Shown here in pieces: positions 12,244 through 52,864 of a stretch of 64,000 nt of DNA. The translations under genes and the position numbers were made by a program. A model generated the notes under the pieces. The model searched no databases. It was not told the DNA's origin and saw only the letters and a program-made list of their open reading frames with translations. Position 1 is the first letter of the stretch; the number at the start of each line of letters is the position of its first letter. Origin of the DNA: Patescibacteria group bacterium (GTDB taxonomy: Bacteria; Patescibacteriota; Microgenomatia; Levybacterales; UBA12049); contig BPJB01000001.1 in the NCBI GenBank assembly GCA_026004395.1, positions 15,543 through 79,542 on the forward strand. Reading direction: 5' to 3'.

Positions 12244-12804
12244 ATGAAATTATACAATTCACGTAAATTCATTGGAATTTTCATTTTTTTTCTCATTTTT
12301 ATTCCGTTAATAATATTCTTATTTTCATTGTATAAAAATGGAACAATTTATGTCCTAAACAAAAGTAAAAATTATTATCTTTCTTACCAAGAAACTCCAG
12401 AATTTCTGAATCTTATAACAAATTTAGAAATTTTCATTAAAGAAGTGCATTTTGAAGGGGTAAGGATTAAATTAAGTCACTTGACAATCGAACTAGTAGA
12501 TATGCCTCAAGTGGTAACTTATAGTGAAAATAATAGTAGGTATGTTATTAATTCAATAATTTTGTTGGATGATAAACGAAATAATCTCGTGATCAGAGTA
12601 TATATACCTTTAGTGAATAAAACTCTTGATGAACAAAGATTAAGTCAAATTTTCCTTCAGGAAGTTGTAACAAAACTTTATGTAATTTCACATGAAGATA
12701 CAACTACTAAGATTCTTAATAAGGAAATACCTCTTATCATGAGCATTTTTAGGAATAACCCAGAGCAAAATCCTTTTAAAATAGCTATAAAGGTACAAAA
12801 ATGA
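12244..12804 (+). CDS. hypothetical membrane protein
   Basis: N-terminal TM helix; stop overlaps the next start (ATGA). Confidence 0.4.
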   Translation: MKLYNSRKFIGIFIFFLIFIPLIIFLFSLYKNGTIYVLNKSKNYYLSYQETPEFLNLITNLEIFIKEVHFEGVRIKLSHLTIELVDMPQVVTYSENNSRYVINSIILLDDKRNNLVIRVYIPLVNKTLDEQRLSQIFLQEVVTKLYVISHEDTTTKILNKEIPLIMSIFRNNPEQNPFKIAIKVQK

Positions 12805-13985
12805 AAGTTTTTTATCATTTAATCTTGCCAATAATTGGTTCAATTCTTGTATTATTTTTATTTTTTGTTAATACTCAGGTCATTGACGCCTATCATATAC
12901 AAGATTGTAGTAGAACAGTTACCGGTCCAAACGGAAGTGTTCTTTGTTGCACTTATGATACTGATCTTGGAGATGGAACTGGCGGGCCGGCAGCATTATG
13001 TAATCCACCTTCTGGTGGTGATGGTAGTTATAATGGTCCGTATACTGGTGATGGTAGTTATGATGGTCCTTACAATGGTTCGTATTTACCTGATTTTCGG
13101 GTGACGTCAGTTGGTGCGAGGAATAGGAATGGTAATACTCAGTCGTATTTTGTAGCGGATTCTCCTACGTATAATATCGATGGAGATCCGATATATGTAA
13201 CTGTGGATATTTTAAATGATGGGAATGGGTATCCAGATAGTTCTTCAAGGCATGCTGTGTATAAGGATGTTGATGCATATAATAGTGGTTCAGCCTCCAT
13301 GTATATAGATTCATCTAATAACTGGCCTCCAGGGTTTACTGCTACTTATCAGTCGTGGCCTGGGGGGGTAAGGAGTGATCAGTTTACCAGTCCTTTTTTT
13401 ACGCAGCGTAATGCAGGTAGGTATAGGGTGTATGTTAAAGCCAATTATAATAATGCGGTATCAGAGTGGAATTATTCCAATAATACAGGGTCTAGCGCTA
13501 TTTATGAGGTCAGATCATCAATTTTTGGTTGGGTGTGTTGGAGTAAGAATGAGGATGCCCAGTGTGATGATGCTAGTGGGAGTACACCTGCTGATCCTCT
13601 GGTGAGTAATATTCGGATTACGTTGTATAAGGATAATAATAATAACTATGGTACGTTGGTGGCAACGGATACTACGGTGCAGACTTCTAATTGGAATAGG
13701 AGTTATGCGTTTGATAATCTGAGTGCGGGAGATTATTTGGTGAGGTGGGATGATCCTGACTGGCTGCCTATCTCCTCACAAGCTAGGACAGCGACACTTG
13801 GTCCGCATACGAGGATACGCTTTGCGGTGAAGCCAGCGTATAGGCTTTGGGGTTATGTGTTTGTGGATAATGATCGGGATGGGGTGCGGGATAGTGATGA
13901 GACGGTTGGATATTCTGGGGTGAGTGTTAGTTTGAGTGGTACAGAGAGTAGGACGACGACGACAGATGCTAGATGGGATGTATGA
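12801..13985 (+). CDS. SdrD-B-like/Cna-B-repeat surface adhesin, N-terminal part (frameshifted from 13936..15639)
   Basis: Signal/TM N-terminus. SdrD_B-like module: GYVFVDNDRDGVRDSDETVGYSGVSVSLSG...TTTTDA. It ends 50 nt inside the next ORF. Confidence 0.6.
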   Translation: MKVFYHLILPIIGSILVLFLFFVNTQVIDAYHIQDCSRTVTGPNGSVLCCTYDTDLGDGTGGPAALCNPPSGGDGSYNGPYTGDGSYDGPYNGSYLPDFRVTSVGARNRNGNTQSYFVADSPTYNIDGDPIYVTVDILNDGNGYPDSSSRHAVYKDVDAYNSGSASMYIDSSNNWPPGFTATYQSWPGGVRSDQFTSPFFTQRNAGRYRVYVKANYNNAVSEWNYSNNTGSSAIYEVRSSIFGWVCWSKNEDAQCDDASGSTPADPLVSNIRITLYKDNNNNYGTLVATDTTVQTSNWNRSYAFDNLSAGDYLVRWDDPDWLPISSQARTATLGPHTRIRFAVKPAYRLWGYVFVDNDRDGVRDSDETVGYSGVSVSLSGTESRTTTTDARWDV

Positions 13986-15639
13986 GTTTACGGGTCTTCC
14001 ACGTGGTACGTATACGATCACGATTACTGAGCCTAATGGGTATAAGGCGTATCCTTCAGTGAGTAAGCAGCAGGTAATAGATCTTAATGAGACTCAGAGG
14101 AACTGGAGGAATGATTTTGGGATCAATCGTGTGTATAGTATAACAGGTAGGGTTTATGCTGATGCTAATCAGGATGGGAGTTATTCAGCAGCTGATGATG
14201 TAGCGATAGTTAATCAGGGTGTTAGTTTGACAGGGAGTAGTTCAGCGAGTGTTGTTACTGCTTCAGATGGTGTGTATAGTTTTAGTAGGCTTGAGCCTGG
14301 TGAGTATTTTGTGAGTACTACACCCTCAAGTGATTATACAGTGTTGACATCCTTGCCTTTGCGGGTGGTAATCACTTCTTCTGATGTTGCTAATCAGGAT
14401 ATTCGTTTTTATGGTAAGTATACGATCTCAGGGGTGGTGTTTGTTGATGAGGATGATAGTAAGACGAAGAATAATCAGGAGCAGAATTATCCAGCTAATC
14501 CGCAGATAGCAGTTACCTCATCTCCAACTGGAGCTCCTCTTCCTCAGGTGGTGAATAATGCTGATGGTTCGTATCAGGTAACAGGACTTATCTCAGGGGA
14601 GTATACAGTGGCGTATAGTGCGCTGCCTCTTGGGTATTATGTGTTTCATCCCCGACCAGCGTTCTATGCTCCAAGAGTTGGTGTTGGCTGTAGTCCTGCG
14701 CCCCAGTCACCAGGAGGAAGCTGTGATGGAAATAACAATATAGTTGATCTGAACTTTGCGATCAAAGCTGGTGAGCCGTGGATGCAGATCTATGGTGCGG
14801 ATGTGAGGTTTGATGAGGGGTTGAATGACCCTGTGCCTCCAACACCTAATGCTGCCTGTGGTGGTGCTTATGTGATCCTGCCGGGTAGTGGTGGTACTCC
14901 TGGTGTTGGATTTAGTGGAGATCTGCCACCTAAGCTTAATCTGGGTAGTATCTCCTCTTTGGGTTGGCTGGTGGGTGGTGTCCAGTATCCCTCGTTGTTT
15001 AAGCCGGTGAGAGCTAAGGTGATCAGAACAGCTTATGGTTATCTGATGTTTGCTGTTGGTCGGGGTAATGTGCGTACTGTTAATCTCTCCTCTGTTTGTA
15101 ATCCTGCCAACTGTACTCTGCCTGCTTCTTTGGCATCAGGTATCTATACTGCAACAGGAAATGTTAATCTTAATGCTTTTACCTTTCCTGCTAATCGGGA
15201 CTATATCTTCCTCATAGATGGTACTCTGCGTATTAAAGGACAGATCCGAGTTCCCACTACCTCAACAGCTACATTCTCTGTCTCTGAGGATATACTCATT
15301 GATGGCAGTGTGGGTAGTCCTCCTTCCTGTCCTCCACCAGCTGTTGGAGCTGCTGATCTGGAGGGTTTTTACAGTGCTGATCGCAACTTTATCGTTGAGA
15401 GTTCTCCTCAGACTGACTGTTCAGCAGGTATCATCGATAAACAGCTTAATGTCCAAGGAGCAATTGTTGTGGATGCTGGACAGAGAACACCAGGTGGAAG
15501 ATTTACCAACAACAGAACCTTCTGCACCCAAAATATTGACTACCCCTCCTTCACCCTCAGAGCTAGACCTGATTTCATCCTTAATGCCCCTGAGTTCATC
15601 AAACGCGAAAACTTCATCTGGCAAGAAGTAGCACCATAA
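13936..15639 (+). CDS. SdrD-B-like/Cna-B-repeat surface adhesin, C-terminal part
   Basis: Repeated modules G(R/V)VYADANQDGSY...GEYFV and GVVFVDEDDSKT...GEYTV. The junction ...TTTTDA|DGMYEFTGLPRGTYTI is restored by removing one base near 13970. Confidence 0.6.
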   Translation: MVQRVGRRRQMLDGMYEFTGLPRGTYTITITEPNGYKAYPSVSKQQVIDLNETQRNWRNDFGINRVYSITGRVYADANQDGSYSAADDVAIVNQGVSLTGSSSASVVTASDGVYSFSRLEPGEYFVSTTPSSDYTVLTSLPLRVVITSSDVANQDIRFYGKYTISGVVFVDEDDSKTKNNQEQNYPANPQIAVTSSPTGAPLPQVVNNADGSYQVTGLISGEYTVAYSALPLGYYVFHPRPAFYAPRVGVGCSPAPQSPGGSCDGNNNIVDLNFAIKAGEPWMQIYGADVRFDEGLNDPVPPTPNAACGGAYVILPGSGGTPGVGFSGDLPPKLNLGSISSLGWLVGGVQYPSLFKPVRAKVIRTAYGYLMFAVGRGNVRTVNLSSVCNPANCTLPASLASGIYTATGNVNLNAFTFPANRDYIFLIDGTLRIKGQIRVPTTSTATFSVSEDILIDGSVGSPPSCPPPAVGAADLEGFYSADRNFIVESSPQTDCSAGIIDKQLNVQGAIVVDAGQRTPGGRFTNNRTFCTQNIDYPSFTLRARPDFILNAPEFIKRENFIWQEVAP

Positions 15640-23927: not shown

Positions 23928-24100
23928 ATTTAATTATGAAAAATGTTTTAAGTAGTATAAAGGAAAGAACTGGCATTTTAATTAAATACTAAAATTAACT
24001 GAAAATATTGCCTCAAGTATGTAAATTTTTGCCATAGGAAAAATAAATTAAATGTATAATTTTGTTGTTTAACAAGTCCTTGCGTGGTAAGATATAAGAT

Positions 24101-24607: not shown

Positions 24608-24613
24608 TCATCA

Positions 24614-26971: not shown

Positions 26972-27043
26972 TGGGCCTGGATGGGATCGAACCATCGACT
27001 TCCATTTTATAAGAATGGCACTCTACCGCTGAGTTACAGGCCC
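26972..27043 (-). tRNA. tRNA-Ile (anticodon UAU)
   Basis: Manual cloverleaf: GGGCCUG/CAGGCCC acceptor, D ACUC/GAGU, anticodon stem CCAUU/AAUGG with loop CUUAUAA, T arm GAUGG-UUCGAUC-CCAUC. No encoded CCA. Confidence 0.75.
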
Positions 27044-27475
27044 TACCTAATTCTGTGACAATAAGTATAATTTATCTTAAACTGCGATACAAGTCTGTCG
27101 TAATATGAATTGACATTTTAATTTTTCTTAGTTGTATTTCACCTAAGTCACATCTTGCGTTTTTTTCTTTTACAATTTTTATCTTTTTTTTAAGAAGCTA
27201 AAGTATTCTGCTTTTGAGAATAATTTCTCAGCTAATAAAGAGTATCTTAGCTAAGTTGAGTTACAGCCAAATCTTACTCTATACATTTGATTTTTTTTGT
27301 TTAAGTATAACAGCCCTAATACCTGATTTAATTTAGGTGGACAAACTAAAAAGGATTAATATTTTTCAGACTATTTTTAAAGTAAGAAATGGAAGATTTT
27401 CAGCAGGTATTAAAAGACATGATTTGTTCACTTCCAAAGTTGCTCAAAAGATGTGGGAAGTACATTTTGAGAGGT

Positions 27476-28336
27476 TTAGAGCTCACTCAATTGTGCTGTT
27501 TCTTTTCCGCGTTCTTTTACATACTCAAGGTAGCGTTCAGTGGTTGAGATTCTTTTATGTCCTAAAATTTTGGCTAGGAGGACGAGTGAGACTCCATGTT
27601 TGATATGATGTGCAACAAATGTGTGACGCAGATCATTGACTTTGGCATTCTCAATCTCAGCAATTCTAAAGTAACGTTCAATAGCTGTGCGAATATTGCG
27701 GACTAAGAAAGGTTTGCCGGATTTTGTAATAAATATGTGGTCATCCTTAACTTGAGGTCTGACTTTAAGATAGTTGTTAAGTGCTTCTTTGGCTGGACGA
27801 TTAAGAGGGACTAGTCTTTCCTCATGTTTTTCATAGGGACGAATCCTTAGATTATCTCCTTGGATGTCAGATAGTCTAAGTTCTGCGAGCTCTCCAATAC
27901 GAATACCTGTTTGCAGCAAAAGCTCAATAATAGCAAACATACGCGCATCGTTGCGCGCTGCATCTCGAAGAGCGCGGTATTCAGTAGGTTTGAGAATACG
28001 AGGTGGAGCAAGTTCATATCGTGGATGTTCAACCAGAAGCGATGGATCATCAGTAATATACTCATTTACTTTAAGAAACCTATAAAACGTGCGGGTAGAG
28101 TTGAGTTTTCGAGATAAGGATTTGGGAGTATATCCTTTTTCTGACATTTTGGCTAAAAAGGCTTGAATATCTTCGCTGGTTACTTCATGTACATGATGTT
28201 TTTGGAGTTCTTCTAGAAATGAAGCTAACTGCTCAATATCTTTTCCATATGCTAAAATAGTAGCATTGGAGTGTTTTTTGCTTTTAAGAAATTCGATAAA
28301 TTGTTTATGAGCATCACGAATTTTAGTACTCTGCAT
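27476..28336 (-). CDS. tyrosine site-specific recombinase, XerC/XerD-like
   Basis: 286 aa; N-terminal SAM-like domain; catalytic R..HxxR..Y region (HDLRHTF...HKRISTTERY). Confidence 0.85.
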   Translation of the reverse strand: MQSTKIRDAHKQFIEFLKSKKHSNATILAYGKDIEQLASFLEELQKHHVHEVTSEDIQAFLAKMSEKGYTPKSLSRKLNSTRTFYRFLKVNEYITDDPSLLVEHPRYELAPPRILKPTEYRALRDAARNDARMFAIIELLLQTGIRIGELAELRLSDIQGDNLRIRPYEKHEERLVPLNRPAKEALNNYLKVRPQVKDDHIFITKSGKPFLVRNIRTAIERYFRIAEIENAKVNDLRHTFVAHHIKHGVSLVLLAKILGHKRISTTERYLEYVKERGKETAQLSEL

Positions 28337-28780: not shown

Positions 28781-28784
28781 TGTG

Positions 28785-28853
28785 TTGCGGGGCTGGTATC
28801 GAAACCAGACTATGAGATTATGAGCCTCATGTGCGCCTTACACTACCCCGCGC
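28785..28853 (-). tRNA. tRNA-Met-like (anticodon CAU), non-canonical, possibly damaged by 2 single-nt deletions
   Basis: Acceptor CGCGGGG/CCCCGCA (C1.A72 mismatch as in initiator tRNA), U8, anticodon arm UGAGG-CUCAUAA-UCUCA. But the D stem is 3 bp, nt 26 is absent, the T loop is 6 nt and total length is about 68 nt. Confidence 0.45.
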
Positions 28854-28995: not shown

Positions 28996-29069
28996 GCCAG
29001 GGTAGCTCAGTCGGTTAGAGCACAGCATTCATAACGCTGCGGTCGTGGGTTCAAATCCCACCCCTGGTA
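28996..29069 (+). tRNA. tRNA-Met (anticodon CAU; elongator-like, Ile2/lysidine type not excluded)
   Basis: GCCAGGG..CCCUGGU acceptor (G1.U72), D arm GCUCAGUCGGUUAGAGC, anticodon loop UUCAUAA, T arm GUGGG-UUCAAAU-CCCAC. Confidence 0.8.
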
Positions 29070-29409
29070 CTTCAGTTATATGATTTATCAAGTAGGAGAT
29101 TATTGCTTTGCAATGTTATTTAGCAAGTAGTTAGACCACTAAACCTCAGAGATTTTTATATCTATTTACAGACTTCCTTGAATTCAGAGAATATTTTTTA
29201 TCTTCAAACAGAGTAGAGTATCTACTAACACAAGTGATTAAGTCATCAATGTAGTGGGGGTGAGAAAAAGATTGTTTTAGCTTCTAGTAGTGTATTTCTT
29301 ATTGGGTGAAAAATATGCAGGTATACAGGTATACTTGGAGATTTAAATTTGAATTTTAATATCTTTAGGTTGCACCGTCTCTTTCTGAGATTTCTTTGGA
29401 GATATTTGA

Positions 29410-29967
29410 TCAATTCTTGGTAATATAAAAGTTCCCATAGTATGTTTTGTAACCTCCTTCCCAGAGCATGCGGATAATCTCAACAGCTTCTATCAGCATA
29501 TCTTGGCGGTCATTGATTGGCGGCCATCCCATTCCTACCACATGTTCGTTAAGGTTCTCACCTGTGCCTAATCCTAAAAAGAACCTTCCTTCCAAAAGTG
29601 AGGCAGATGTTGCTGCCGCCTGCGCAATGATAACAGGATGAATTCTCAAAATGGGACAAGTGACTCCTGTTCCCAGTCGGAGATTACTTGTTTTTTGTGA
29701 AATACCCCCTAAAACACTCCAGACAAAAGGTGATTGCCCTTGTTGTTCTATCCAAGGATGGAAATGGTCAGAAATGAGCGCAAAAGTAAAGCCGCTTTTT
29801 TCAGCTTGGGTTGCGTAGTCAATAAGTTGTTTGGGGTTATGTTCCTCTGATGAAAGTGCGTATCCAAGATTAATCATACATAAACTGTAGTGGTTGATTT
29901 CAAAGAAAGGATGAGATATTTGGTAGGAATCTGTAAGAAGAAAGAGGAGTTTTTTGGTACAATACAT
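29410..29967 (-). pseudogene. LLM-class (luciferase-like) flavin-dependent oxidoreductase, N-terminal ~185-aa fragment only
   Basis: LLM N-terminal signature (…ISDHFHPW…LGLGTGENLNEHV…) but only about half of a normal ~330-aa protein. Followed by ~330 bp of non-coding DNA. Confidence 0.5.
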
Positions 29968-29981
29968 TTACTTTACAATCT

Positions 29982-31376
29982 ATGAACTCTTTGCAGGAAA
30001 AATTGCAATTTTTTGCAGGTAAAAAAATCGCTATACTTGGTCTGGGAGTTGAAGGAATCTCAACTGCTAGATTTCTTGCCAAACAAAAAGCCAACCTTGT
30101 GATTTTTGATCAGAAGTCAGAGTCTGGCGTAGATCCTATTTTTATTAAAGAGGCAAAAGATCTAAAAAGTGTTTGTGTTTTAGGAAAGGATGCATTCAAA
30201 TATTTCGCAAAAGAGAGATTTGATATAGTAATACGCAGTCCCGGTATTAACAAAAACGAAGATTTTCTCATTCATTCTGCACGTTCTGGTGCAATAATCA
30301 CTTCACACACACAACTGTTCTTTGACTTTTGTCCCTGTCCGATCATTGGAGTTACTGGTACAAAAGGCAAGGGAACAACATCAACTCTTATCTATGAAAT
30401 GCTCAAAAAAGATGGAAAGGATGCGTATTTGGGAGGGAATATTGGTATTCCTCCATTAGAGTTTATTGATAAACTCTCCAAAAAATCATTGGTCGTTCTT
30501 GAACTTTCATCATTTCAGTTGCATGATCTGCATGCAAGTCCCCATATTGCTGTTATGCTGATGGTTGTTCCGGAACACTTAGATTATCACGATAGTGCAG
30601 AAGATTATGTTGATGCTAAACGGAATATTCTGCGTTTCCAAAGACACACAGATTTTGCTGTCCTTAATAGAGACTATATTGCAACTAATGAATCTGATAT
30701 TTATACAGATGGTAAAGTATATTTTGTTAGTCGTGAAAGAAAAGTAAATGAAGGATGCTATGTACAAAATGGTGCTTTTTGGATACGGCAAAACGGTCAC
30801 GAGAAAAAAATAATTGACACAAAAAATATTTTATTGCCCGGTAGGCACAACTGGGAAAATATCAGTGCTGCTATTATGGCTGCAAAACTTGCTGGAGTAA
30901 AGGAAGAATCAATAGTTTCTGTTCTTAAGACATTTAAAGGATTAGAGCACCGTCTTGAACTTGTAAGAGAAGTCAATGGTGTGCGCTATTTTGATGATTC
31001 ATTTTCAACAACGCCAGAGACAGCAATTGCTGCCATTGAAGCATTTACTGAACCTGAGATTTTGATTTTAGGAGGATCAAGTAAGAACAGTGATTTTACT
31101 CAGCTAGGTAATACGATCAGTAAGGCTTCAAATATAAAAGCAATTATTGGTATAGGAGAGGAATGGAAGAGGATTAAAGAATCACTTCATGATTTACCTC
31201 ACCATGTGTTAATAGTTGAAGGAGCAGATTCAATGCATAAAGCAGTGAGGGCAGCAGCTGCAATTGCCAGACGGGGAGATGTCGTCATTCTATCTCCAGC
31301 CTGTGCTAGTTTTGATATGTTCAAAAATTATAAAGAGCGGGGAAATATCTTTAAGGAGGAAGTATTCAAACTTTAA
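29982..31376 (+). CDS. murD: UDP-N-acetylmuramoyl-L-alanine--D-glutamate ligase
   Basis: 464 aa; N-terminal Rossmann (ILGLGVEG), Mur ligase P-loop GVTGTKGKGTTS. Confidence 0.9.
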   Translation: MNSLQEKLQFFAGKKIAILGLGVEGISTARFLAKQKANLVIFDQKSESGVDPIFIKEAKDLKSVCVLGKDAFKYFAKERFDIVIRSPGINKNEDFLIHSARSGAIITSHTQLFFDFCPCPIIGVTGTKGKGTTSTLIYEMLKKDGKDAYLGGNIGIPPLEFIDKLSKKSLVVLELSSFQLHDLHASPHIAVMLMVVPEHLDYHDSAEDYVDAKRNILRFQRHTDFAVLNRDYIATNESDIYTDGKVYFVSRERKVNEGCYVQNGAFWIRQNGHEKKIIDTKNILLPGRHNWENISAAIMAAKLAGVKEESIVSVLKTFKGLEHRLELVREVNGVRYFDDSFSTTPETAIAAIEAFTEPEILILGGSSKNSDFTQLGNTISKASNIKAIIGIGEEWKRIKESLHDLPHHVLIVEGADSMHKAVRAAAAIARRGDVVILSPACASFDMFKNYKERGNIFKEEVFKL

Positions 31377-31393
31377 CTAAAATTAAAATTTAG

Positions 31394-32692
<1,299 letters not shown>

Positions 32693-32702
32693 TATAAAAA
32701 GA

Positions 32703-33369
32703 TTATTTTACAGATTTTTTTGGATGTCTCCAGTAATCTCGCCGAGCTTTCAATATATCAACTCTATGGTAGGGATGTTTTATTGCTCTTTGTATTACTT
32801 CCTCAACAAGACCAACGTTTGCCTCAAGATCTTCTCGACGAAACGCTTTTAAAAGTTCACTGCTTTGAATAATTGCTACGTTTTCACTCGTATAGATATC
32901 AATATAATCATAATCACCAGCAACAATTTTTTCCGGCAAACCATAGGGAAGATTGGTAAAAGGATTATACTGCAATAAAGGAAGAGAAATACGCTCTGAA
33001 AATTTTGCAATTAGTTCTTGCTCTTCTTCGGTAAGTCGAATTTTATCTCCCCAGCGTAAACGATACAGGGTATAATAATGAGGACTCTCCTTGTACATCT
33101 TTTTCTATAATTTGTTTTTTATCTAGAGTGGAGTTTTTAGCCTGGGTAATGCTATCTACGGTATGCATGAGTTTGAAGAGAATTAACTCAAGTATGTGAT
33201 TTATATTTTCAGCTTTTTCTTCTCTTCTTCGGGATGGTAAAAGGAAGGGATAAAGGTGCACATTATTTTGCAAAAGCGCACTTTTTTGATGGGGAATAAT
33301 AAATTCCTGCCACTCAACTGCCTCTGGTATCTCACCAAAATTCATTTGGCGATACCATTCTTTGTTCAT
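32703..33369 (-). CDS. hypothetical protein split by a frameshift in an A6 run (track ORFs 33043..33369 and 32703..33098)
   Basis: Two overlapping same-strand ORFs whose products look like one ~235-aa protein. The junction is at the aaaaaa run near 33100. Confidence 0.4.
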
Positions 33370-33541
33370 TCTAAGATTATTATGGATTGTCGTTGTAGCA
33401 AGATGCCTTGGTATCCTAAAAGATTAGTATTTAGTATTATCTAATTCTTTTGTGAACATGCTACAATAGCGGTATGCAAAGAATAACTTTTTTACAGCTA
33501 CAATCTCATTGTTGTATACAGTTTAATAAGAAGGAAATAAG

Positions 33542-34524
33542 ATGAATAGGAAAAGAGTGTATTCTGGTATACGCGCGACGGGAAGATTGCATCTTGGGAA
33601 TTACCTTGGTGCAGTCAAGGGAATGCTTGAGCTACAGGAGAAGTACGATTGTATTTTTTCTGTAGTTGATTTACATGCAATTACGACTCCGTATGACCCT
33701 AAAACACTTAAGCAATCTGTGAGAGAGGTGATACTGGATTATCTTGGTGCAGGAGTGGATCCGAATAAGTGTTTACTTGAGATACAGTCTCGCGTTCCAG
33801 AGCATACAGAACTTGCGTATTATTTATCTACGATTTATCCTGTTGCCCGTCTTGGAGGATCTCCCAACGTATAAAGACAAAAAGGCTCAGCACCCAAAAT
33901 ATGTGAATATGGGTCTTCTATATTATCCCATACTTAATGGCAGCGGATATTTTGCTTTATAAAGCTGAGCTTGTTCCGGTTGGGATTGATCAGGAGCCCC
34001 ATATTGAGGTTACCCGCGAGATTGCTCGCAAATTTAACAGTATGTTTGGAGACACATTTCCCGAGCCCAAAAGATTTGCAACAGCGGGTGAGTATATACC
34101 ATCGCTTTTAGGAGAAGGGAAGATGAGCAAGTCAGTGGAGGGAAGTTATATTTCTCTAACTGATGATTTGGAAACAATCAAGCGCCGTCTAGCTGCTGCT
34201 CCTACTGATAGCGGAAAGACCGGTGGGGAAGTGCCAAAAACTGGAGGAGTTGCTCATCTTTTTACTCTTTTGAAACTTTTTTCTCTAGAGCTCTATGAAA
34301 AGTACGCCAAGGATTATCAAGAAGGAAAGATTCGCTATAGCGATATGAAATCGGATCTTGCACAGTTAATTTTTAATGAACTTCAACCTTTCCAAAAGAA
34401 GCGCAAAGAGTTTGAAAACAATCCTCAACTTGTTGATGCAATTTTGGATGAACATACTCATCAACTTCGCAGAATGGCGCAGTCTACAATACAAGAAGTA
34501 AAACAAAAGATGGGTTTTCTTTGA
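33542..34524 (+). CDS. trpS: tryptophan--tRNA ligase, interrupted by two 1-nt frameshifts (about 33850 and 33940)
   Basis: HIGH-like GRLHLGNYLG; the middle ...LEDLPTYKDKKAQ...LLYYPIL is only in a third frame; the KMSKS region (KMSKSVEG) in 33937..34524. Confidence 0.85.
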
Positions 34525-34881
34525 TGTGAGTAAAAGAGAAGAGTAGAATATTGCTTAAAAACTGTTTAATTGGTAATGTTTATAATCAATCTACGCGTGT
34601 GCAAGACTAGACAAAATTTAATTGATGAGAGTCATTAATTCATCTTACATTAGAGTTTCATGTATATTCACTCCTTAAGTTATAATTTCTTTAGCGGGAA
34701 AAATTATTTTTTTAATAGAGGGTAGAGGATGATAAAGTATTGAAAAAAATACGAATGATACTGTTTGATATAGTTTTTTCACAAGATTTTAATTACTTTT
34801 CACAAAATAAAAGTCATAAATAAAATGTGGATAACTTTCTCAAATGATTGACTGATTAATTAAAGAATTGTATGCTAAATT

Positions 34882-36026
34882 ATGGACTATCCCAAAACTT
34901 TTCCTCTAGGTCTGACCTTTGATGACGTTCTTCTTCTCCCTGGATTTAGTGATTTTTCCCGCTCTGAAATTTCTCTTGAAGACACAGATCACTAAAAAAC
35001 TGCGTTTGCAGATTCCTTTTATATCCTCACCCATGGACACGGTCACAGAACACAAGCTGGCGATTGCGCTTGGTAAAATGGGAGGACTGGGCATAATCCA
35101 TAGAAATCTGCTTATAGCTGATCAGGTGGCAGAGGTAAAAGCTGTCAAAGCAAAAGGACTTTTGGTGGGAGCTGCTGTGGGTGTTGGTAAGGGTTTTGAA
35201 GCATCGTGTTGAAGCGCTCATTGAGGCAGGGGTTGATATTATTGTCATAGATTCTGCTCATGGTTATTCTGCTCCTGTCCTCTCTACTCTACGTTGGATT
35301 AAGCAAAAATATTCTGCGACGCAAGTAATGGCAGGCAGTGTGGCAACATATGATGGTGCCCGAGCTCTTATTGATGCAGGTGCAGACTGTCTTCGTGTTG
35401 GTATGGGACCTGGTGCAATTTGCACCACGCGAATCATATCAGGAATGGGTGTACCGCAGATCACTGCTCTTCTTGAGACAGTAAAGGCTGCAAGAGCGGC
35501 TGGAATTCCAATAATTGCTGATGGAGGGATTAAATACTCAGGAGATATGGTCAAAGCCTTGGCAGCAGGCGCCTCAGCTTGTATGATGGGTTCTTTTTTT
35601 GCTTCTGCTGAGGAGTCTCCCGGTGAAGTTCATGTTCTAGACCGTGCTCATGTCCCCCACCGTTTTCAAAGCATTCTGACGCAGAGAGAGACATATAAGT
35701 TCAAATCTTATCGTGGAATGGGATCTGTCGGAGCTATGCAACAAGGAGCGAAAATAAAATCTGAAGATGAGTTTCATGGCAAAAATTACTACAAAGATCG
35801 AGTGCTTGTTGCTGAGGGTGTAGAAGGTTTGGTACCTATTAAGGGGACAGTTAGAGAGTTAGTTGAACAATCAATTGGTGGTATCAAATCAGGAATGTAT
35901 TATGTAGGTGCGAGAACAATAGAAGAATTGTGGAAGAAAGCGCAGTTTATCCAAATCACACAAGCATCACTTACAGAATCTCATCCTCATGATATTCTTA
36001 TTACCAATCCTGGCGATAACTATTAG
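34882..36026 (+). CDS. guaB: IMP dehydrogenase (CBS-domain-less form), interrupted by two frameshifts (about 34960 and 35195)
   Basis: N-terminus [23 protein letters not shown]…; [13 protein letters not shown]; catalytic Cys loop [11 protein letters not shown]; [11 protein letters not shown]. There is no CBS insert between ...[18 protein letters not shown]. Confidence 0.85.
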
Positions 36027-36080
36027 AGATAAGCCTCAAGACCTTTAGCGGGAATAAAACTAGACTCAAAGGCAGTAGCA

Positions 36081-37052
36081 TTACATACCTTCCAGCTGCT
36101 CTTGGGTGAGGATATTCTCCTTTTTAAGAAATAGAAATTGCTCTTTTAGCTGTGCGCCTTCAATCATCTCCGGCCAATCAGTATTGATTGTAAACTTGAC
36201 ACCGTATTTTATAAATGTATGCAGAATGCGACGAAGTTCAGCAATGTTCTTCACTGCACGTGTTGCTAGGTTTGAAAGTGGACAGACCTCAAGTACAATA
36301 TTTCTCTTGACAATCTCTTTCATAAGTGAACTATCAGAGGCAGCATGAATACCATGTCCTATTCGATCAGGAGAGATATATTCAAGAGCTTCCCAGAGAT
36401 CATTGTTATTTCTAACTTCTCCAGTATGGACAGTAATTTTTAATCCTGCCTTGCGGGCTTTTTGAAAAAGATTTCTATAATCTTTGAAATTAAATCTAGG
36501 ATCTATAGGTCCAGCAACATCTATTCCCACTACTCCCCTCTTGTGATACTTTATGGCTTTCTCAACAATAATTGCATTTTGTTCATAAGAAAACTCGCGA
36601 GCAAGACTAAATATTAATCCAGCTGACAATTTGGGATATTCAAGTAGAGCTCTCTCCATTCCACGTAGCATAGCCATAATGACATGATCCAGATCAATAG
36701 TTCCACCATGATTATGTTTCATTGGGTTATTGCGAAGCTCAAGAAGAATAATATTGTTTGCTCTATAAGCTCCTCCCATAATCTGATGTGTTGCATGTTC
36801 AACAGCGTGTGTTCCGGATGAGAGCCGATCCAATAAAGGATGGTATATTTTCTCGAAGTACGTATTAAGTGGCATGGTGCGTTTAGATGAAAGGCGTATA
36901 AACTCTTTAAATTCATGATAATCACGTTTTGGAAGTTTAAATCCTTGATCATGAGCTATCTGCCAGTAGATAGATGGATGAATAGATGCTCCCAAATGAG
37001 CATGAAGTTCAGCCAGTGGAAAATTGGGAAATGATGAGCTATTTGAATCCAT
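36081..37052 (-). CDS. adenosine/AMP deaminase-family metallo-hydrolase
   Basis: HAHLGAS (HxH), ITVHTGE, EVCPLSN and TINTDWP motifs. The last differs from the canonical NTDDP. Confidence 0.78.
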   Translation of the reverse strand: MDSNSSSFPNFPLAELHAHLGASIHPSIYWQIAHDQGFKLPKRDYHEFKEFIRLSSKRTMPLNTYFEKIYHPLLDRLSSGTHAVEHATHQIMGGAYRANNIILLELRNNPMKHNHGGTIDLDHVIMAMLRGMERALLEYPKLSAGLIFSLAREFSYEQNAIIVEKAIKYHKRGVVGIDVAGPIDPRFNFKDYRNLFQKARKAGLKITVHTGEVRNNNDLWEALEYISPDRIGHGIHAASDSSLMKEIVKRNIVLEVCPLSNLATRAVKNIAELRRILHTFIKYGVKFTINTDWPEMIEGAQLKEQFLFLKKENILTQEQLEGM

Positions 37053-37114
37053 AATCCATTTTAAATACTATTGTCTCTTTTCGCAAGAAAACACCTTAAG
37101 TTATAATAAGTTGC

Positions 37115-38641
37115 ATGATTTATGTAGTTGATTTTGGATCTCAGACTGCGCATCTTATAAAGCGACGAATAAGAGATTTAGGAGCTATAACGAAATTTAT
37201 TACTCCAGATGAAATAATGGCTGCAATACAAAAAGAAAAACCCCATGGGATTATCCTCTCTGGTGGACCAGCCTCAGTCTATGACTCAAACTCCCCTACT
37301 CTTGGGAAGGAGATTTTCTCAATGAACATTCCTCTTCTTGCGATTTGTTATGGTATGCAGTTGATGATGCAGCTGTTGGGTGGGACTGTTGTCTCGGGGA
37401 AAAAAGAATATGGTCCTTCTGTTCTTGTACGCATCTCAAATAAAGGAAAGTTATTAAAAGGTGTTCCGCCTCGATCTACGGTTTGGATGAGTCATGGAGA
37501 TGAGGTAGTAGTACTTCCTCAAGGGTTTGAAACAATTGCATCAACAGATAATGTCCAATATGCTTGTGTAGCTGACCTAAAGAAAAAACTTTTTGGGATG
37601 CTTTTTCATCCTGAAGTTGAACATACAGAGTACGGAGAAGTTATACTAAAAAATTTTGTTGAGCTTTGTAATACTCCTCTTATTCAAAAGGAAATAGATA
37701 TTCAAGAATTAGAAAAAAGTATTCGTCGGGAAGTTGGAGAGGCATATGTGATTGGCGCGGTATCAGGCGGAGTGGATTCTACTGTAGCCGCAGCTCTTAC
37801 CGCGCGGGCAATAGGAAAAAAATTTGTGCCTTTTTATGTTGATAATGGTCTAATGCGCGAGGGAACAACTCAGCAAGTTAAAGCAATTTTTAAACACCTT
37901 GGTGTTTCAGTAGATATCATCGAGGTTGAGGAAGAGATGCTTGAGAGACTGAAAGGAATTGATGAACCTGAAGAAAAACGGAAGATAATTGGCAACTTTT
38001 ATATCGAACTTTTCGAAAGAGAAATGAAAAAGCTTAAAACAGCTGGAAAAGATGTTGAGTTTCTTCTTCAAGGGACAATCTACTCGGATGTGATTGAGAG
38101 CAAAGGAACTAAATATGCAAGTAAAATTAAGTCGCATCATAATGTTTTGGGACTTCCCAAAAAAATGAAATTAAAGTTGTTGGAGCCTTTAAGAAATTTT
38201 TATAAAGATGAGGTAAGAGAACTTGGTATCAAACTTGGGCTTCCTGATTCTTTTGTATACCAACAGCCCTTTCCCGGTCCTGGATACGCTATAAGGATTC
38301 GGGGTGAGGTGACAAAAGATAGACTCGAAAAAGAGCGAATTGCAGATAGAATTGTCCTTGAAGAATTAAAAAAAGCTGGTTTTTTGCAAAAAGTATTTAT
38401 TTCTTTTCCTGTTTTAACAGGTGCTTTTTCCACAGCAGTTAAAGGTGATGGAAGATTTTTTGGAGAAGTGATTGCACTTCGTGTTGTTGAGTCAAAAGAT
38501 GTAATGACTTCAAAATGGTCGCACCTACCCTACTCACTTTTACAAGTGATATCCAGTCGTATTGTCAATGAGGTCCCTGGTATTTCGCGGGTAGTGTATG
38601 ATATCACAACTAAACCTCCTGCCACGATGGAATGGGAGTAA
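37115..38641 (+). CDS. guaA: GMP synthase (glutamine-hydrolysing)
   Basis: GATase domain (ICYGMQ, HPE) and ATP-PPase domain (SGGVDSTV); 508 aa. Confidence 0.95.
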   Translation: MIYVVDFGSQTAHLIKRRIRDLGAITKFITPDEIMAAIQKEKPHGIILSGGPASVYDSNSPTLGKEIFSMNIPLLAICYGMQLMMQLLGGTVVSGKKEYGPSVLVRISNKGKLLKGVPPRSTVWMSHGDEVVVLPQGFETIASTDNVQYACVADLKKKLFGMLFHPEVEHTEYGEVILKNFVELCNTPLIQKEIDIQELEKSIRREVGEAYVIGAVSGGVDSTVAAALTARAIGKKFVPFYVDNGLMREGTTQQVKAIFKHLGVSVDIIEVEEEMLERLKGIDEPEEKRKIIGNFYIELFEREMKKLKTAGKDVEFLLQGTIYSDVIESKGTKYASKIKSHHNVLGLPKKMKLKLLEPLRNFYKDEVRELGIKLGLPDSFVYQQPFPGPGYAIRIRGEVTKDRLEKERIADRIVLEELKKAGFLQKVFISFPVLTGAFSTAVKGDGRFFGEVIALRVVESKDVMTSKWSHLPYSLLQVISSRIVNEVPGISRVVYDITTKPPATMEWE

Positions 38642-39430
38642 TTATTTTTGGGAAGGCGCAGAGAGAATAAATTTTTCAATAACAGTTGCTGCGCCATCTT
38701 CCGTGACTGAGGGAGCTATATAATCAGCGATTGCTTTGAGATCAGCAATCGCATTACCCATCGCTACTTTTAGTCCGCATGCCATCAAGAGAGAAAAATC
38801 GTTATAGCTGTCCCCTACTCCGATCATCTCTTGAGGACTAACATTAATTCGTTTTCCGACCTCATATATACCGTGTAGTTTTGTTGCTTTTGCATGAGTG
38901 ATATTAATTCCATATTTATTAGGATGTTTATGCCGAGATTTATAGAGTGTAATATTGGATAAATGAGAGAGTGTATTGATAACACTATTAGCCTTATCTT
39001 CAGAAAGTATTTCATCCGTAAAGAACATATAGGCATTTTCAAATGTTTGTCCGTTTTGGAATGTTTGCAATGCGCAGGAATATTCATGGTGATTTTGTTT
39101 TAGATAAAATGGTATATTTTCCTGCTGGAGAAAAGAGATGATCTCTTCTGCATCCTGCTTTTCTATAGGTTGATCATAAACAATAGTACCCTTTGAGAGT
39201 TCAATAACTTGAGCACCATTATTAATAACAGCATAACCTGTATTTAGATCTAGTTTTTTTAGAATTTCTTTAAGGAATCCATATGATCGTCCTGTAACAA
39301 GAGAAACTGTGACGTATTTTTGAGCTTTTTTGATCGCCTCAGCAACAGTATCAGATGGCAGTGCGGAATAGTTATAAGGGATGAGTGTCCCATCAACATC
39401 GAACATTATTGCTTTGTAACGCATAGGCAC
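38642..39430 (-). CDS. Cof-type HAD-IIB family phosphatase
   Basis: FDVDGTL motif I, GVGDSYND motif, 262 aa. Confidence 0.85.
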   Translation of the reverse strand: MPMRYKAIMFDVDGTLIPYNYSALPSDTVAEAIKKAQKYVTVSLVTGRSYGFLKEILKKLDLNTGYAVINNGAQVIELSKGTIVYDQPIEKQDAEEIISFLQQENIPFYLKQNHHEYSCALQTFQNGQTFENAYMFFTDEILSEDKANSVINTLSHLSNITLYKSRHKHPNKYGINITHAKATKLHGIYEVGKRINVSPQEMIGVGDSYNDFSLLMACGLKVAMGNAIADLKAIADYIAPSVTEDGAATVIEKFILSAPSQK

Positions 39431-39497
39431 ATATTGTAATGAGTTATTTATTGCTATTCAAGCCTCATGTATCATTATCTTTGAATCATGCTACAAT

Positions 39498-41272
39498 ATG
39501 GCTGCAATGGACCAGGTCAATCAGATTAGAGACAAGATAGATCTTGTATCCTTTATTCAAGAAACAGTCCCTCTTAAAAAAGCAGGCAAGAATTTCAAAG
39601 GTCTTTGTCCATTTCATAATGAAAAGACTCCATCATTTATGGTTTCTCCTGAAAAACAAGTGTGGCATTGTTTTGGTTGTAACGCAGGAGGAGATATATA
39701 TACCTTTCTTATGCAGTATGAGCGTATTGATTTCCCGGAGGCACTGCGTATTCTAGCAAAACGAGCTGGTATTGAATTAATTCAGACAAATTATGATTCT
39801 GGACTTTCATCAAAAAAGGAAAGACTCTACTCTCTTAACTCTCTGGCGGCAGAATATTATCATTATCTTCTGACAAAACATGCTGTTGGAGAAAAAGCAA
39901 GGCTTTATCTTAAAGAAAGAGGTTTAAATGAGAAGATAATTGAGACATTTCAATTAGGGTTTGCTCCATCTATTGGCAATGGTCTCTCTCGCTATCTTCT
40001 TGAGAAGAAAAAATACGAGAAAGAAGAATTGATTGATGCAGGACTTGCGTTTAATCGTGGTAGAGATGTGGTAGATTTTTTCCGAGGAAGGATTATGTTT
40101 CCGCTTATTGATCATCGAGATAATGTAGTAGGTTTTTCCGGAAGAATTCTTGATAATACGAAGTCAACTTCAAAATATATTAATACGCGCGAGACTCTTG
40201 TTTATCATAAAGGAGAACATTTTTACGGACTAAATGTCACCAAAGAATTTATTCGCAAAACAGGTCAGGCAATTTTAGTTGAGGGAGAATTTGATGTCAT
40301 TTCATCATTTCAGGAAGGTATTACCAATGTTGTTGCTGTCAAGGGAACTGCTCTTACACAGCAGCAGATTAATCTCATTGGAAGATACGCTCAAAAGATC
40401 TCAATCTGTTTTGACAAAGATGCAGCTGGTCAGGAGGCAATTAGGCGTAGTCTTCCTCTTATTGAGAGTAAGGGTCTTCGTGTAACAGTTGTTGTTATTC
40501 AAGATGGAAAAGATCCTGATGAGGCAGTTAGGAAAAATCCCGCTAGGATTTAAAATGGCTATCCGTAAAGATATGGGAGTTTACGACTATCTTTTTGAAC
40601 AAGCAAGAGCTCGTTTTGATGCCACAACGATTGAGGGGAAAAAGGAGATTGCGGATGAGTTATTACCGGTAATTTCAGGCATTACAAATGCGATTGTTAA
40701 GGAACATTATCTTCGCAAGTTAAGCTCTTTACTTAATACAAGCTATGAAAGTATTGCCAAAGAACTGGAAAAAACACAAAAAAGAACACCTATTTTACCT
40801 CAGATGCTCAAAGTACAACCAAAAAGATCCCGAGAGGAAATTTTAGAGGAATATTTAATCTCTCTTATTATTCAGTTTGATGATCCTCATTTAGCTTTAG
40901 AAAAAGCAAACACTATTCTTGCAGACGTTTTTTCCAAAGAAAAAGCGTATCAGAAGCTTTTAGATATTTTAACTAATTATTTTCAATATAATGAGAGATT
41001 TGATAGTCGGAAGTTTGAACAATTACTTACCAGAGGAGTTGCATTTTATTTACAATAAAAGTATTTTATTCCCTCTTCCAACTTTTTCTTCACCTCAAAA
41101 ATATCTCCATGAGATTGAAAAAGTTGCATGGGAGTTGAGAGATTTATCACTACGTGAAAAGATCAGAATGCTTAGTGAACAAATATCAAAGTATGAAAAA
41201 GAGGGAAAATCAGAAGAAATTGAGTCTTTGCGATCAGAATATGCCCATCTTCTCTCTCTCTTACATAAATAA
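39498..41272 (+). CDS. dnaG: DNA primase, interrupted by two frameshifts (about 40540 and 41035)
   Basis: Zinc-binding domain CPFHNEKTPSF…HCFGC; TOPRIM EGEFD…DKDAAG. The C-terminal helper region continues in ORFs 40489..41058 and 40991..41272. Confidence 0.85.
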
Positions 41273-43629: not shown

Positions 43630-43704
43630 TCCGCGGTAGCTCAATGGTAGAGCAGGAAGCTGTTAACTTCAAGGTTCTAGGTTCGAGTCCTAGCCGCGGA
43701 GCCA
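43630..43704 (+). tRNA. tRNA-Asn (anticodon GUU), CCA encoded
   Basis: UCCGCGG/CCGCGGA acceptor, D arm GCUCAAUGGUAGAGC, anticodon loop CUGUUAA, T arm CUAGG-UUCGAGU-CCUAG, then GCCA. Confidence 0.85.
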
Positions 43705-44205
43705 AATTGTATGTTCAAAGGAAGCCGCCGACCCCCGCAAGGCGAAGTGGATTTTGATTGTTTCGAGTGAGTAAAGAATTTTAGAAAGAAACCTTTTGGC
43801 AAAAAAGTTTCTTTCAATTCCTTTTGATTTTTTGAGTCTGACAAGAAAAAATTTTAGAGTGTTTGAAATGTTTTCAAAGGAAAATTTAGAGCATACCTCT
43901 GGTAGTTCGTATCCAGCCCGGCACCCCGATTGAAAATCGTTATTTAAACGAAAAACAAGATTTTCGATATAGTTTTTATCAATCGAAATGCGCTCTAAAT
44001 TTTCCAGACAAAAATTTTCCAATCTTTCAGCGGAAATTTGTTTTACCGGGCAAGTTTGCCAATCCTGTCTTAGGGTTGAAGTACAGCGATAGTAATAATA
44101 TCTTTTTAATTTTTTGCCAGTTCTTTTATTGGTAAAACAAGATGTCATTTTAGAACTGCAATTTTCGCATTGGACCAATCCACCGAACAGAAAATTTCTG
44201 TACAT
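43690..44205 (-). pseudogene. large serine recombinase, C-terminal half only (zinc beta-ribbon + coiled coil + tail); catalytic domain absent
   Basis: FLFGGLVQCENCSSKMTSCFTNKRTGKKLKRYYYYRC…CPV matches the recombinase zinc-ribbon domain. No resolvase N-terminus. Its 3' end overlaps the tRNA-Asn 3' end. Confidence 0.65.
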
Positions 44206-44270
44206 AACCTAAGCGAAGAAGATTTAGTAAAGCTCACACACAGAACTGCTTTGCGCATACCACCATTTGT

Positions 44271-44630
44271 TTAGCTTGCATCGTCTATAGTTCTGGCGCG
44301 AAAGTTGATTATTTTTTTGAGTAGGCTAGGGGGGATCGGTTTGTCAGCAGTAAACTGCAGGGTACCTTTTGAACTCCGATACTTAACCAACTTTGGTCCG
44401 ACCGCATTGATCATTTCGTCGGAGGCTGGATATATGCTCATATGTTTGCTATGGGCAGCATAGTATATCAAAATCTTTTTGTGGTATTTGAAAGCGGGTA
44501 TACCATAGCTTATAATTTCCTCTACTTCTGGAAGCTGAGATTTTACTAAATTCCGAATCTTGATTAGCTCATCGCGATGTGACTCTGGCAAATCCTGTAA
44601 GTAGCCATCAACTGTTTGATGTTTTTTCAT
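44271..44630 (-). CDS. DUF1801 (YdhG-like) domain protein
   Basis: 119 aa; …ISYGIPAFKYHKKILIYYAAHSKHMSIYP… is typical of DUF1801. Confidence 0.7.
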   Translation of the reverse strand: MKKHQTVDGYLQDLPESHRDELIKIRNLVKSQLPEVEEIISYGIPAFKYHKKILIYYAAHSKHMSIYPASDEMINAVGPKLVKYRSSKGTLQFTADKPIPPSLLKKIINFRARTIDDAS

Positions 44631-44668
44631 AACCCAATTATATCAAATAGTAGCGATGCTGTATAGAT

Positions 44669-44812
44669 ATGACTAAAGAGGAGGTACTAGGTGGTACAGT
44701 GCACGAGCTGCCCACCGACCTGCGCAAAGCCTTGGCTGCCAATAAGGCGGTCTTAGCTAAATGGCAGAGCCTTACACCCCTGGCCCGCAACGAGTGGATT
44801 TGAGCTTTTAGT
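44669..44812 (+). pseudogene. YdeI/OmpD-associated-family N-terminal fragment inside a GC-rich (~58% GC) foreign segment
   Basis: 47-aa ORF MTKEEVLGGTVHELPTDLRKALAANKAVLAKWQSLTPLARNEWI* carrying the YdeI motif; it stops where YdeI proteins continue. Local GC is far above the window mean. Confidence 0.45.
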
Positions 44813-44990
44813 CAAACGAAATTAAGGAGTTCCTTGTTGTTGCGCGCGAATGGGCAGGGTGGGTCAAACGCAACTGTATTGGCGGCGCATTTCGCAAAGC
44901 GAAATACGAAATTCGGCGGCGGAAAAGCGAGGGTGGGCAAAAATTCCTTCCCCCAACCCCCTTCCTTTTTGCCCGCCCGAGCGTAATTTA

Positions 44991-45311
44991 TCAAAAATCC
45001 GGTTGCTGATTTTCCTTGGAAAAAGTTCGGATTTCGTTCAGAGTTCGGAGCCAGAGTTGACGAGAGGCTAAATTGGCTATCTTGTCAAAGGGGTTTAGAA
45101 AGTGGTATCGGACTTTTTTACCTTCTAACTCTAAGTTCTGAAGTGTTATTTTCAAAAGTAGTCGTTTTTCGTGAACTTCAGAACTCAAAAACAAATCATA
45201 AGCCTGATTAGCAAGTGTTAAAAGGTAGTTTGCTGTTAAATAATAGTTGTCTTCAGCTTTCTTAAGATTCGCTAGTTTAGTAAAATTTTTCATTAAAAAA
45301 TGCTTTGTCAA
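44991..45311 (-). pseudogene. serine-recombinase C-terminal-tail-like remnant ORF (repeat copy 1)
   Basis: …KRLLLKITLQNLELEGKKVRYHFLNPFDKIANLASRQLW… This sequence recurs in ORF 52865..53092 and in two further loci. Confidence 0.45.
45050..45186. repeat. ~135-bp repeat family, copy 1 (3' end of a recombinase-like gene)
   Basis: Read directly. Related copies at 52986..53108, 57682..57812 and a degenerate copy at 59931..59973. Confidence 0.8.
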
Positions 45312-45377
45312 ATCAATTTGTATTGTATTATACTATAAAGAAAAATAATTAAATATCTTTAATCAAAGTATTTAATT

Positions 45378-45755
45378 ATGAAATTTACTGAAATTGATCT
45401 TAATACAATTTATTTAGCTTTAAGTATTTTCTTGGCTATTTTAAATATTTACCAATTTTTTAAAAATAGAAGCGATGTAAAAATTCTCGATGGAATCTTA
45501 ACAATGTTACATAACACTTCAGAAAGCTTAAGAAATGCGCTTTTACAAATATCACAAAATCCCGATTCATTTACTGATAAAAAGGATGTTATAAACACAG
45601 TCGGGGCTGTTTCTCAGTTAGCTTCCGGAATGGTACAAGCAATCGAAGAACAAAGGTTTTATTCTTCAAAGAAAGAAGCTAAACAGATGAGGACTAAAAA
45701 ACAAGAAGAGTTTCAGAAAAAGATGAGTAGAATTTTAAAAAGATATAAACAATGA
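45378..45755 (+). CDS. hypothetical small membrane protein
   Basis: N-terminal TM helix; K/E-rich C-terminus. Confidence 0.35.
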   Translation: MKFTEIDLNTIYLALSIFLAILNIYQFFKNRSDVKILDGILTMLHNTSESLRNALLQISQNPDSFTDKKDVINTVGAVSQLASGMVQAIEEQRFYSSKKEAKQMRTKKQEEFQKKMSRILKRYKQ

Positions 45756-45773
45756 TCTCCCTCCAATAATTGA

Positions 45774-47564: not shown

Positions 47565-47566
47565 AT

Positions 47567-50340: not shown

Positions 50341-50356
50341 TATTTAACATCTTGCC

Positions 50357-52862: not shown

Positions 52863-52864
52863 TC

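Follow-up and report, generated by a model that had tools for sequence, protein, structure and literature searches.

Truncated proteins that result from indel errors are a standard error class and quality measure for long-read metagenome assemblies (PMC13087279). Such frameshift errors, which IDEEL-type measures capture, are among the described systems closest to what we observed in a 64,000-nt stretch (the window; positions 15,543 to 79,542 of contig BPJB01000001.1) of the metagenome-assembled genome (MAG) KatS3mg089. In this stretch, eight one-base insertions at 33085-41029 break trpS, guaB, dnaG, the adenosine deaminase gene (add) and a conserved hypothetical gene, and a ninth, near 13970, breaks a surface-protein gene. 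We conclude that the eight insertions, and probably the ninth, are very probably not in the organism's DNA and would be artefacts of an assembly consensus in which closely related strains were collapsed; judged from the sequences compared here, trpS, guaB, dnaG and their neighbours are almost certainly intact in the organism.

The window resembles assemblies with long-read frameshift errors in that single-base indels split conserved genes into adjacent open reading frames (ORFs) in different frames, and in that it was built from long reads only, at low coverage and without short-read polishing. However, the platform here was PacBio HiFi rather than early Nanopore, homopolymers were avoided, and all of the changes were insertions at strain-variable sites, suggesting that the errors arose at the consensus step and not in the reads. 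Strain-collapsed chimeric contigs are a second described system: the window likewise alternates between two haplotypes and is overlapped by a second contig with a structural difference at 29426, but where such contigs usually show mixed alleles of single-nucleotide polymorphisms (SNPs), here there are also frame-breaking one-base insertions that unite two alleles. The pseudogenes of reductive genomes (Mycobacterium leprae and recently host-restricted symbionts) also have several frameshifts per gene and fragments recognisable by homology; unlike them, this region has no relaxed selection, stops or deletions, and the affected genes are essential, apparently single-copy and intact in relatives at 95-96% identity. 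Programmed +1 frameshifting of the prfB type shares with these sites a downstream frame that is always +1, but here there is no conserved slippery or stop context, the shifts are absent in relatives, and some genes have two sites. The artefact belongs to a recognised general class and has no biological novelty.

We located the splits by translating 33.5-34.5, 34.6-35.3 and 40.4-41.3 kb, together with the minus strand at 32.7-33.4 kb, in three frames, and checked the fragments by Pfam matches and by alignment to intact orthologues from related loci. All seven frame changes listed in an initial annotation of this DNA were recovered by translation and Pfam, each at most about 20 nt from where it had been placed, and its proposal that one base repairs each site held, as the relatives' alignment showed one extra base at each of the seven. 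An eighth insertion, at ~36087-36092 in add, was absent from that list, and the ninth, outside the reported region, is of the same kind as the other eight. At every site the shift is +1, corresponding to one extra DNA base: all nine changes are insertions and none is a deletion. Intact orthologues aligned to the window as colinear segments across three frames, with no residues missing. Close relatives or an independent assembly allowed 28 kb of the window (15.6-43.7 kb) to be checked, and eight of the insertions (positions in Table 1, from the relatives' alignment) sit in a 7.9-kb part of it, a clustering beyond chance by our own scan-statistic estimate (~1e-3). Alignment to close relatives revealed no further one-base insertions in 24.4-33.0 kb or 41.03-43.7 kb.

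The hypothetical gene is divided into pieces at 33369-33043 and 33098-32703, which are ORFs of 108 and 131 amino acids (aa; KatS3mg089_0045 and _0044), and intact 221-aa orthologues of its product (P0001-P0003) were found. The pieces of trpS (33542-33874, ~33852-33962 and 33937-34524) matched positions 6-112 and 139-289 of the tRNA-synt_1b profile, and the corrected tryptophanyl-tRNA synthetase (TrpRS) was 99% identical to P0112, from a strain of another sample. Those of guaB (34882-34992, 34919-35212 and 35181-36026) matched positions 1-24, 22-103 and 106-345 of the IMPDH profile. In dnaG (39498-40553, 40489-41058 and 40991-41272), the primase zinc-ribbon, catalytic and Toprim domains matched by Pfam fall in the first fragment and the DnaB-binding domain in the next frame. 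Adenosine deaminase lacks its last 19 residues in the window; removal of one base gives 342 aa, identical to P0107 of the L167 strain. In the surface protein, one part of an SdrD_B domain lies in ORF 12801-13985 and the other in ORF 13936-15639; P0005 is the 557-aa C-terminal fragment (KatS3mg089_0029, encoded on a 1,084,101-bp contig and 100% identical to the window protein), and P0006 is an intact homologue of 934 aa. Locally, the change in this gene, GCT[A]GAT at ~13970, is the same as the one at 40545, GCT[A]GGA.

Close relatives were found only with the hypothetical protein, which is poorly conserved, by fusing its halves and searching a large protein collection, which returned intact 221-aa proteins at 86-93% identity on contigs syntenic with window 24-44 kb; further contigs were obtained via cluster listings. 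GuaA as query found nothing closer than 65% in GTDB species representatives and 62% in JGI metagenomes. The comparison set consisted of eight assemblies from other samples (L161, L162, L163, L164, L167, L169, L170 and L171) with 86-96% nucleotide identity to the window. The extra base was missing from all eight at each site that they cover, and each of the five broken genes of the cluster was a single full-length ORF in the covering relatives, with the lengths given in Table 1 (342-344 aa for Add). The remaining indels within genes, relative to L161 and L167, were all multiples of 3, and only L162 had larger gaps of its own that were not. When the eight bases were removed from the window, complete ORFs with zero internal stops resulted. 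The intactness of murD, tgt, guaA and rpoD, as initially annotated, was borne out by Pfam coverage and the relatives' alignment, which showed the HAD hydrolase gene to be intact as well.

The L162 contig (JGI 3300010938, Ga0137716_10007294) has defects relative to the window and to L161 and L167 (murD -44 nt, guaA -53 nt and a VirD4-like gene +7 nt), each of which shortens or splits the called protein.

We also scanned the remaining large ORFs of the window against Pfam for further splits and found one, that near 13970. By profile coverage, two PBP1-type proteins, GAPDH, guanylate kinase, NrdR, class II ribonucleotide reductase, cobalamin adenosyltransferase, a VirD4-like ATPase, XerC, MurD, TGT, GuaA, the HAD hydrolase and RpoD were full length. 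The junction at 12780-12804 was rejected as a frameshift, being an ordinary stop/start overlap between ORFs, and a codon-usage frame scan over the whole window for shifts without homologues was too noisy for use.

With the wider set of relatives, the window sequence was the union of two natural haplotypes at seven of the eight insertion sites, that is, the difference between the haplotypes can be written as offset indels and the window holds the bases of both (Table 1). At 33933/4, for example, the two alleles combine into ATACTTAATG. When only three relatives were used, four of the eight sites fit a union, compared with 8% expected for random insertions (P = 0.0024). Six of the nine sites could be read as merged synonymous alleles, compared with 33% expected (P = 0.04). 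In a switch-interval test, only three of five sites scored because the aligner gives neighbouring bases to one haplotype; the union pattern is the better evidence.

The sequence between the insertions is likewise a mosaic of the two haplotypes. Over 33885-36551, the window has the L167 or the L169 allele at 179 of the 180 sites where those differ (120 and 59, respectively), with 54 haplotype switches and only 10 private substitutions. Over 35511-40633, it has the L167 allele at 231 and the L170 allele at 77 of 311 sites, leaving 3 unmatched (308 matched), with 39 switches and 2 private substitutions in 5.1 kb. Taking both intervals together, 487 of 491 informative sites match one haplotype or the other, and there are 12 private substitutions. 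A real third lineage, if sampled at the same time, should have a private branch comparable to those of the others, and a two-strain consensus should have almost none. The insertions are confined to the finely alternating zones at 33.0-36.1 and 39.85-41.1 kb, and there are none in the single-haplotype tract at 36.1-39.85 kb, where the window follows one L167-like haplotype apart from one 16-site block of the other. The guaA and HAD genes escaped because both lie in this tract without insertions. Both the fine mosaic with few private changes and the coincidence of the errors with sites at which the haplotypes differ are marks of a strain-collapsed consensus.

Between strains of different samples, identity also varies in blocks, with 100% over 0.5-3 kb beside 90-94% (window 29.4-42.5 kb compared with L167, L162 and L170; examples are 37.1-37.9 and 38.4-39.8 kb). 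Such blocks point to frequent homologous recombination within the species complex, apart from any assembly chimerism.

The source record is consistent with residual errors. KatS3mg089 (BPJB01000001) is a Levybacterales bacterium from Katase hot-spring sediment, placed in Microgenomatia, Levybacterales, family UBA12049 in Supplementary Table S3 of its source paper, where it is one linear contig with 1029 coding sequences (CDS), coverage 10 and completeness 65.8% (PMC9671151). The reads were PacBio Sequel II HiFi (>Q20) with an N50 of 10.5 kb, the assembler was metaFlye 2.8.3, and no other data were used for assembly or polishing (PMC9671151). The genome was therefore built from long reads only, at low depth and without orthogonal polishing, the circumstances in which residual indels are expected. 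The fragments of the split genes are separate CDS in the GenBank deposit (GIW61192-GIW61199; KatS3mg089_0044 to _0047, _0050 and the 323-aa adenosine deaminase), and the frameshifts are thus present in the public record. Over 15610-27915, the window is 100% identical across 12,306 nt to L168, a Logan k-mer contig of run DRR290133, and is therefore free of errors there; DRR290133 is very likely the read set behind KatS3mg089, given this identity. The initial suspicion of indel-type errors in a low-coverage or long-read-only region agrees with an assembly made from HiFi reads alone with metaFlye at 10x mean coverage, and with relatives that lack the extra bases. What did not stand was the proposed context of short homopolymers: although 76 runs of 5 nt or more are present in the region, the longest run in contact with any insertion is 2 nt, and the errors are better described as consensus artefacts where co-occurring strains differ than as homopolymer miscalls. 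Similarly, the shift in the hypothetical gene, initially placed in an A/T run at ~33100, lies at 33085/6 in the relatives' alignment.

Three explanations based on local sequence were considered and rejected. Homopolymer miscalls were ruled out by the longest run at any site, 2 nt, and transcriptional slippage, which could rescue expression, requires a long A/T run at the shift, which these sites likewise lack. A motif of CUU plus one base, suggestive of prfB-like slippage or four-base decoding, was ruled out when alignment with close relatives showed that the codon position of the inserted base differs among the sites; CUU appeared enriched because synonymous Leu codons create ambiguity.

We propose the following model for the origin of the insertions. 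The sediment would contain this Levybacterales bacterium in two or more closely related strains, strain 1 near the L167 haplotype and strain 2 near L169/L170/L171 and, in places, L162 or L166 (a second contig of the same assembly, described below), and the assembler would have merged them in a single contig. The consensus would flip between the haplotypes wherever both had about the same read support, and where one or two adjacent SNPs could alternatively be aligned as an offset indel pair, the bases of both strains would be kept, adding one nucleotide. We infer that the extra bases arise at the polishing step of metaFlye; no paper describing the exact union-insertion signature was found. As we understand such polishers, a missing base costs less than a mismatch. 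In an indel-tolerant polisher, a candidate containing both bases would then count as one deletion in every read and could outscore a candidate with a mismatch in half of the reads. This scoring would account for the errors being insertions only, for their location where the strains differ and for their recurrence in both contigs.

This second contig, L166 (BPIX01000019.1, 5,070 bp), comes from the same metagenome assembly, was binned in another MAG, and overlaps window 29426-34013 at 99.8% identity. Over 29426-33084 the two sequences are the same; after this point they diverge: L166 is in frame at 33085/6, lacking the extra base of the hypothetical gene, carries five one-base deletions (33219-33422) that are private to it, and differs from the window at three third-codon-position SNPs. 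At its other end, there is a structural difference of ~485 nt with a breakpoint at 29426. The structural variant and the three SNPs suggest that a second haplotype is represented in the same sample, and L166 is an indication that, at this very place, the assembly has both a consensus full of indels and more than one haplotype.

Several observations, some of them from this same contig, weigh against strain collapse as the origin of the insertions. L166 has the same extra bases at 33854 and 33933 despite its three nearby SNP differences, and if different reads lie behind it, this is independent support for those two insertions. Polishing of both contigs with the same mixed read set could account for the sharing. 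Site 33854 is also the one for which no second allele was present among the available relatives. That two strains were present in the Katase sample is our inference from L166 together with relatives found in other samples. A search for DRR290133 k-mer contigs over 33-41 kb, via cluster members and corrected proteins, found only contigs of other samples; the corrected Add proved identical to that of the L167 strain.

The luciferase-like monooxygenase gene of the window (29343-29967) encodes 185 aa, compared with 339-369 aa in relatives, and has a gap of ~485 nt; the missing segment is present in the first 486 nt of L166 (1-486) and in L167 1833-2316. Either the locus is structurally polymorphic or the main contig is misjoined here. 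L166 itself was deposited in bin KatS3mg083, labelled Candidatus Dojkabacteria, and is probably misbinned, given its near-identity to the window.

We weighed three other origins for the insertions. Random, uncorrected errors in one or a few low-quality HiFi reads across a thin stretch of ~8 kb, about one read length, without any strain mixing, are an unlikely one. Mean coverage of 10x, reads down to Q20 and a read N50 close to the 7.9-kb span of the cluster are compatible with such errors, and the burst of five one-base deletions within 200 nt in L166 shows that poor local sequence exists in this assembly. However, seven of the eight inserted bases are the second natural haplotype's allele at the exact column (P = 0.0024 with the smaller relative set). 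HiFi errors concentrate in homopolymer runs, but none of the insertions lies in the 76 runs of at least 5 nt, nor is there an excess of private substitutions (2 in 5.1 kb). Plain read noise may account for individual sites such as 33854; it does not explain the whole pattern.

Genuine, very recent mutations in the Katase population, in a subpopulation or in relic DNA, which would make trpS, guaB, add, dnaG and the hypothetical gene new pseudogenes, are improbable. Substitutions of the window lineage in the affected genes number 94 synonymous and 23 nonsynonymous (trpS 19:3, guaB 23:2, add 18:2 and dnaG 26:9), comparable to those in the intact neighbours (murD 21:5, tgt 24:1 and rpoD 21:2), so that the raised nonsynonymous rate, stops and deletions of relaxed selection were not found. 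Bacterial gene decay is biased towards deletions, but there are none among these changes. Several changes per gene would be expected under relaxed selection after a first inactivation, as seen here, the window also has the truncated luciferase-like gene, and two contigs with different alleles at nearby SNPs share the extra bases at 33854 and 33933. Yet these genes lie at their native locus, syntenic with that of all relatives, and the loss of TrpRS and primase should be lethal; among the best 120 TrpRS matches, all at least 73% identical, no second TrpRS came from the 1,084,101-bp contig. Mutation would not recreate second-haplotype alleles at seven of eight sites, and private substitutions, which a real lineage would have, are nearly absent from the window. 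The narrower possibility that the Katase population truly has the two trpS insertions (33854 and 33933) is similarly doubtful, as nothing beyond their presence in two contigs favours it; if true, it would mean a Patescibacteria cell whose TrpRS gene requires two +1 shifts, or which has lost its only TrpRS. With the genes read as intact under the strain-collapse model, the initial annotation's concern about lethality and paralogues falls away.

Recoding, in which the ribosome would shift +1 or read a four-base codon at each site so that the genes are expressed despite the extra bases, is exceedingly improbable: all nine of nine shifts are +1, and four sites can be written as CUU with one base added, which recalls the CUU-U slip of prfB, but the relatives' alignment places the inserted base at varied codon positions without a common motif, no shift has a zero-frame stop (stops follow 2-9 codons downstream), relatives only 4-5% divergent lack the shifts, and two shifts per gene would multiply the inefficiency.

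The value of these observations lies in quality control, not in biology. At least six genes of BPJB01000001 (trpS, guaB, add, dnaG and those of the 221-aa and the 945-aa surface protein) are annotated as fragments or truncated proteins, most of the fragments being labelled "hypothetical protein" (KatS3mg089_0029, _0044 to _0050 and neighbours). This fragmentation lowers completeness estimates (65.8% reported) and could mislead metabolic and essential-gene inventories of the lineage. HiFi-only metagenome assemblies at ~10x can contain frame-breaking errors other than homopolymer miscalls, and the pattern provides a test that requires no reads: the inserted base matches what a second haplotype has at that position, and two haplotypes alternate along the contig, which has hardly any changes of its own.

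Table 1. Affected genes, alleles at the insertion sites (first haplotype + second haplotype, then the window; hyphens mark absent bases) and genes of the neighbouring island.
Feature	Position	Strand	Details
Surface protein, SdrD_B and CarboxypepD_reg domains	12801..15639	+	one extra base ~13970/13971 (GCT[A]GAT); 945 aa when corrected
Conserved hypothetical gene	32703..33369	-	extra base 33085/33086 (GGA[C]TCT); 221 aa in relatives
trpS (tryptophanyl-tRNA synthetase)	33542..34524	+	three pieces; extra G 33854/5, extra base 33933/4 (ATAC-TTA-ATG); 326 aa in relatives
guaB (IMP dehydrogenase without CBS domain)	34882..36026	+	three pieces; extra bases 34979-34981 (CTTGAAGACA) and 35202 (GAAG[C]AT); 380 aa in relatives
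add (adenosine deaminase)	36023..37052	-	extra base ~36087-36092, premature stop at 36081; 323 aa vs 342 aa
Insertion-free stretch within the cluster	36100..39850	.	most of add, guaA, HAD hydrolase, start of dnaG
dnaG (DNA primase)	39498..41272	+	three pieces; extra A 40545 (GCT[A]GGA), extra base 41027-41029 (CTTACC); 587-591 aa in relatives
Site S1	33085/6		GGA-TCT + GGAC-CT, window GGACTCT
Site S3	33933/4		ATACTTA-TG + ATA-TTAATG, window ATACTTAATG
Site S4	34979-81		CTT-AAGACA + CTTGAA-ACA, window CTTGAAGACA
Site S5	35202		GA-GCAT + GAAG-AT, window GAAGCAT
Site S8	~36090		two haplotypes joined with one-base offset
Site S6	40545		AC-AGGA + GCT-GGA, window GCTAGGA
Site S7	41027-9		CT-ACC + CTT-CC, window CTTACC
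Serine recombinase remnant, zinc-ribbon domain only	43693-44208		island 43630-56000
DUF1801 protein			island 43630-56000
N6/N4 DNA methylase	45777-47591		island 43630-56000
868-aa ResIII helicase with TnsA-like nuclease domain	47570-50173		island 43630-56000
610-aa protein with Mom-like domain	53858-55687		island 43630-56000

Several other features of the window were observed. The strain-specific island listed in Table 1 adjoins a tRNA-Asn gene (43630-43704), and L167 has different genes after the pterin-4a gene. An intergenic repeat of 132 nt is present in three copies with ~83% identity (45047-45178, 52984-53115 and 57689-57820) and also at the end of the L162 contig (1-103). Two 300-nt direct repeats that are 100% identical (10829-11128 and 11231-11530, 402 nt apart) lie inside ORF 10737-11633, which has a weak Fn3-like match; they may reflect a genuine duplication of a domain or, in a collapsed long-read consensus, have been produced by the assembly. 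The region at 6362-8394 is GC-rich (43%), with degenerate 12-18-nt GGTGTnGGnGTn repeats over two minus-strand ORFs without a Pfam match, and long ORFs are open on both of its strands.

An AdoCbl-II riboswitch at 21403-21474 (38.2 bits; gathering score 36.5) lies between the genes for class II ribonucleotide reductase (18802-21297) and PduO-type cobalamin adenosyltransferase (21818-22360). The window also contains a tRNA-Ile gene with the anticodon TAT (26971-27043), which is uncommon in bacteria, and two tRNA-Met (CAT) genes at 28784-28852 and 28996-29070.

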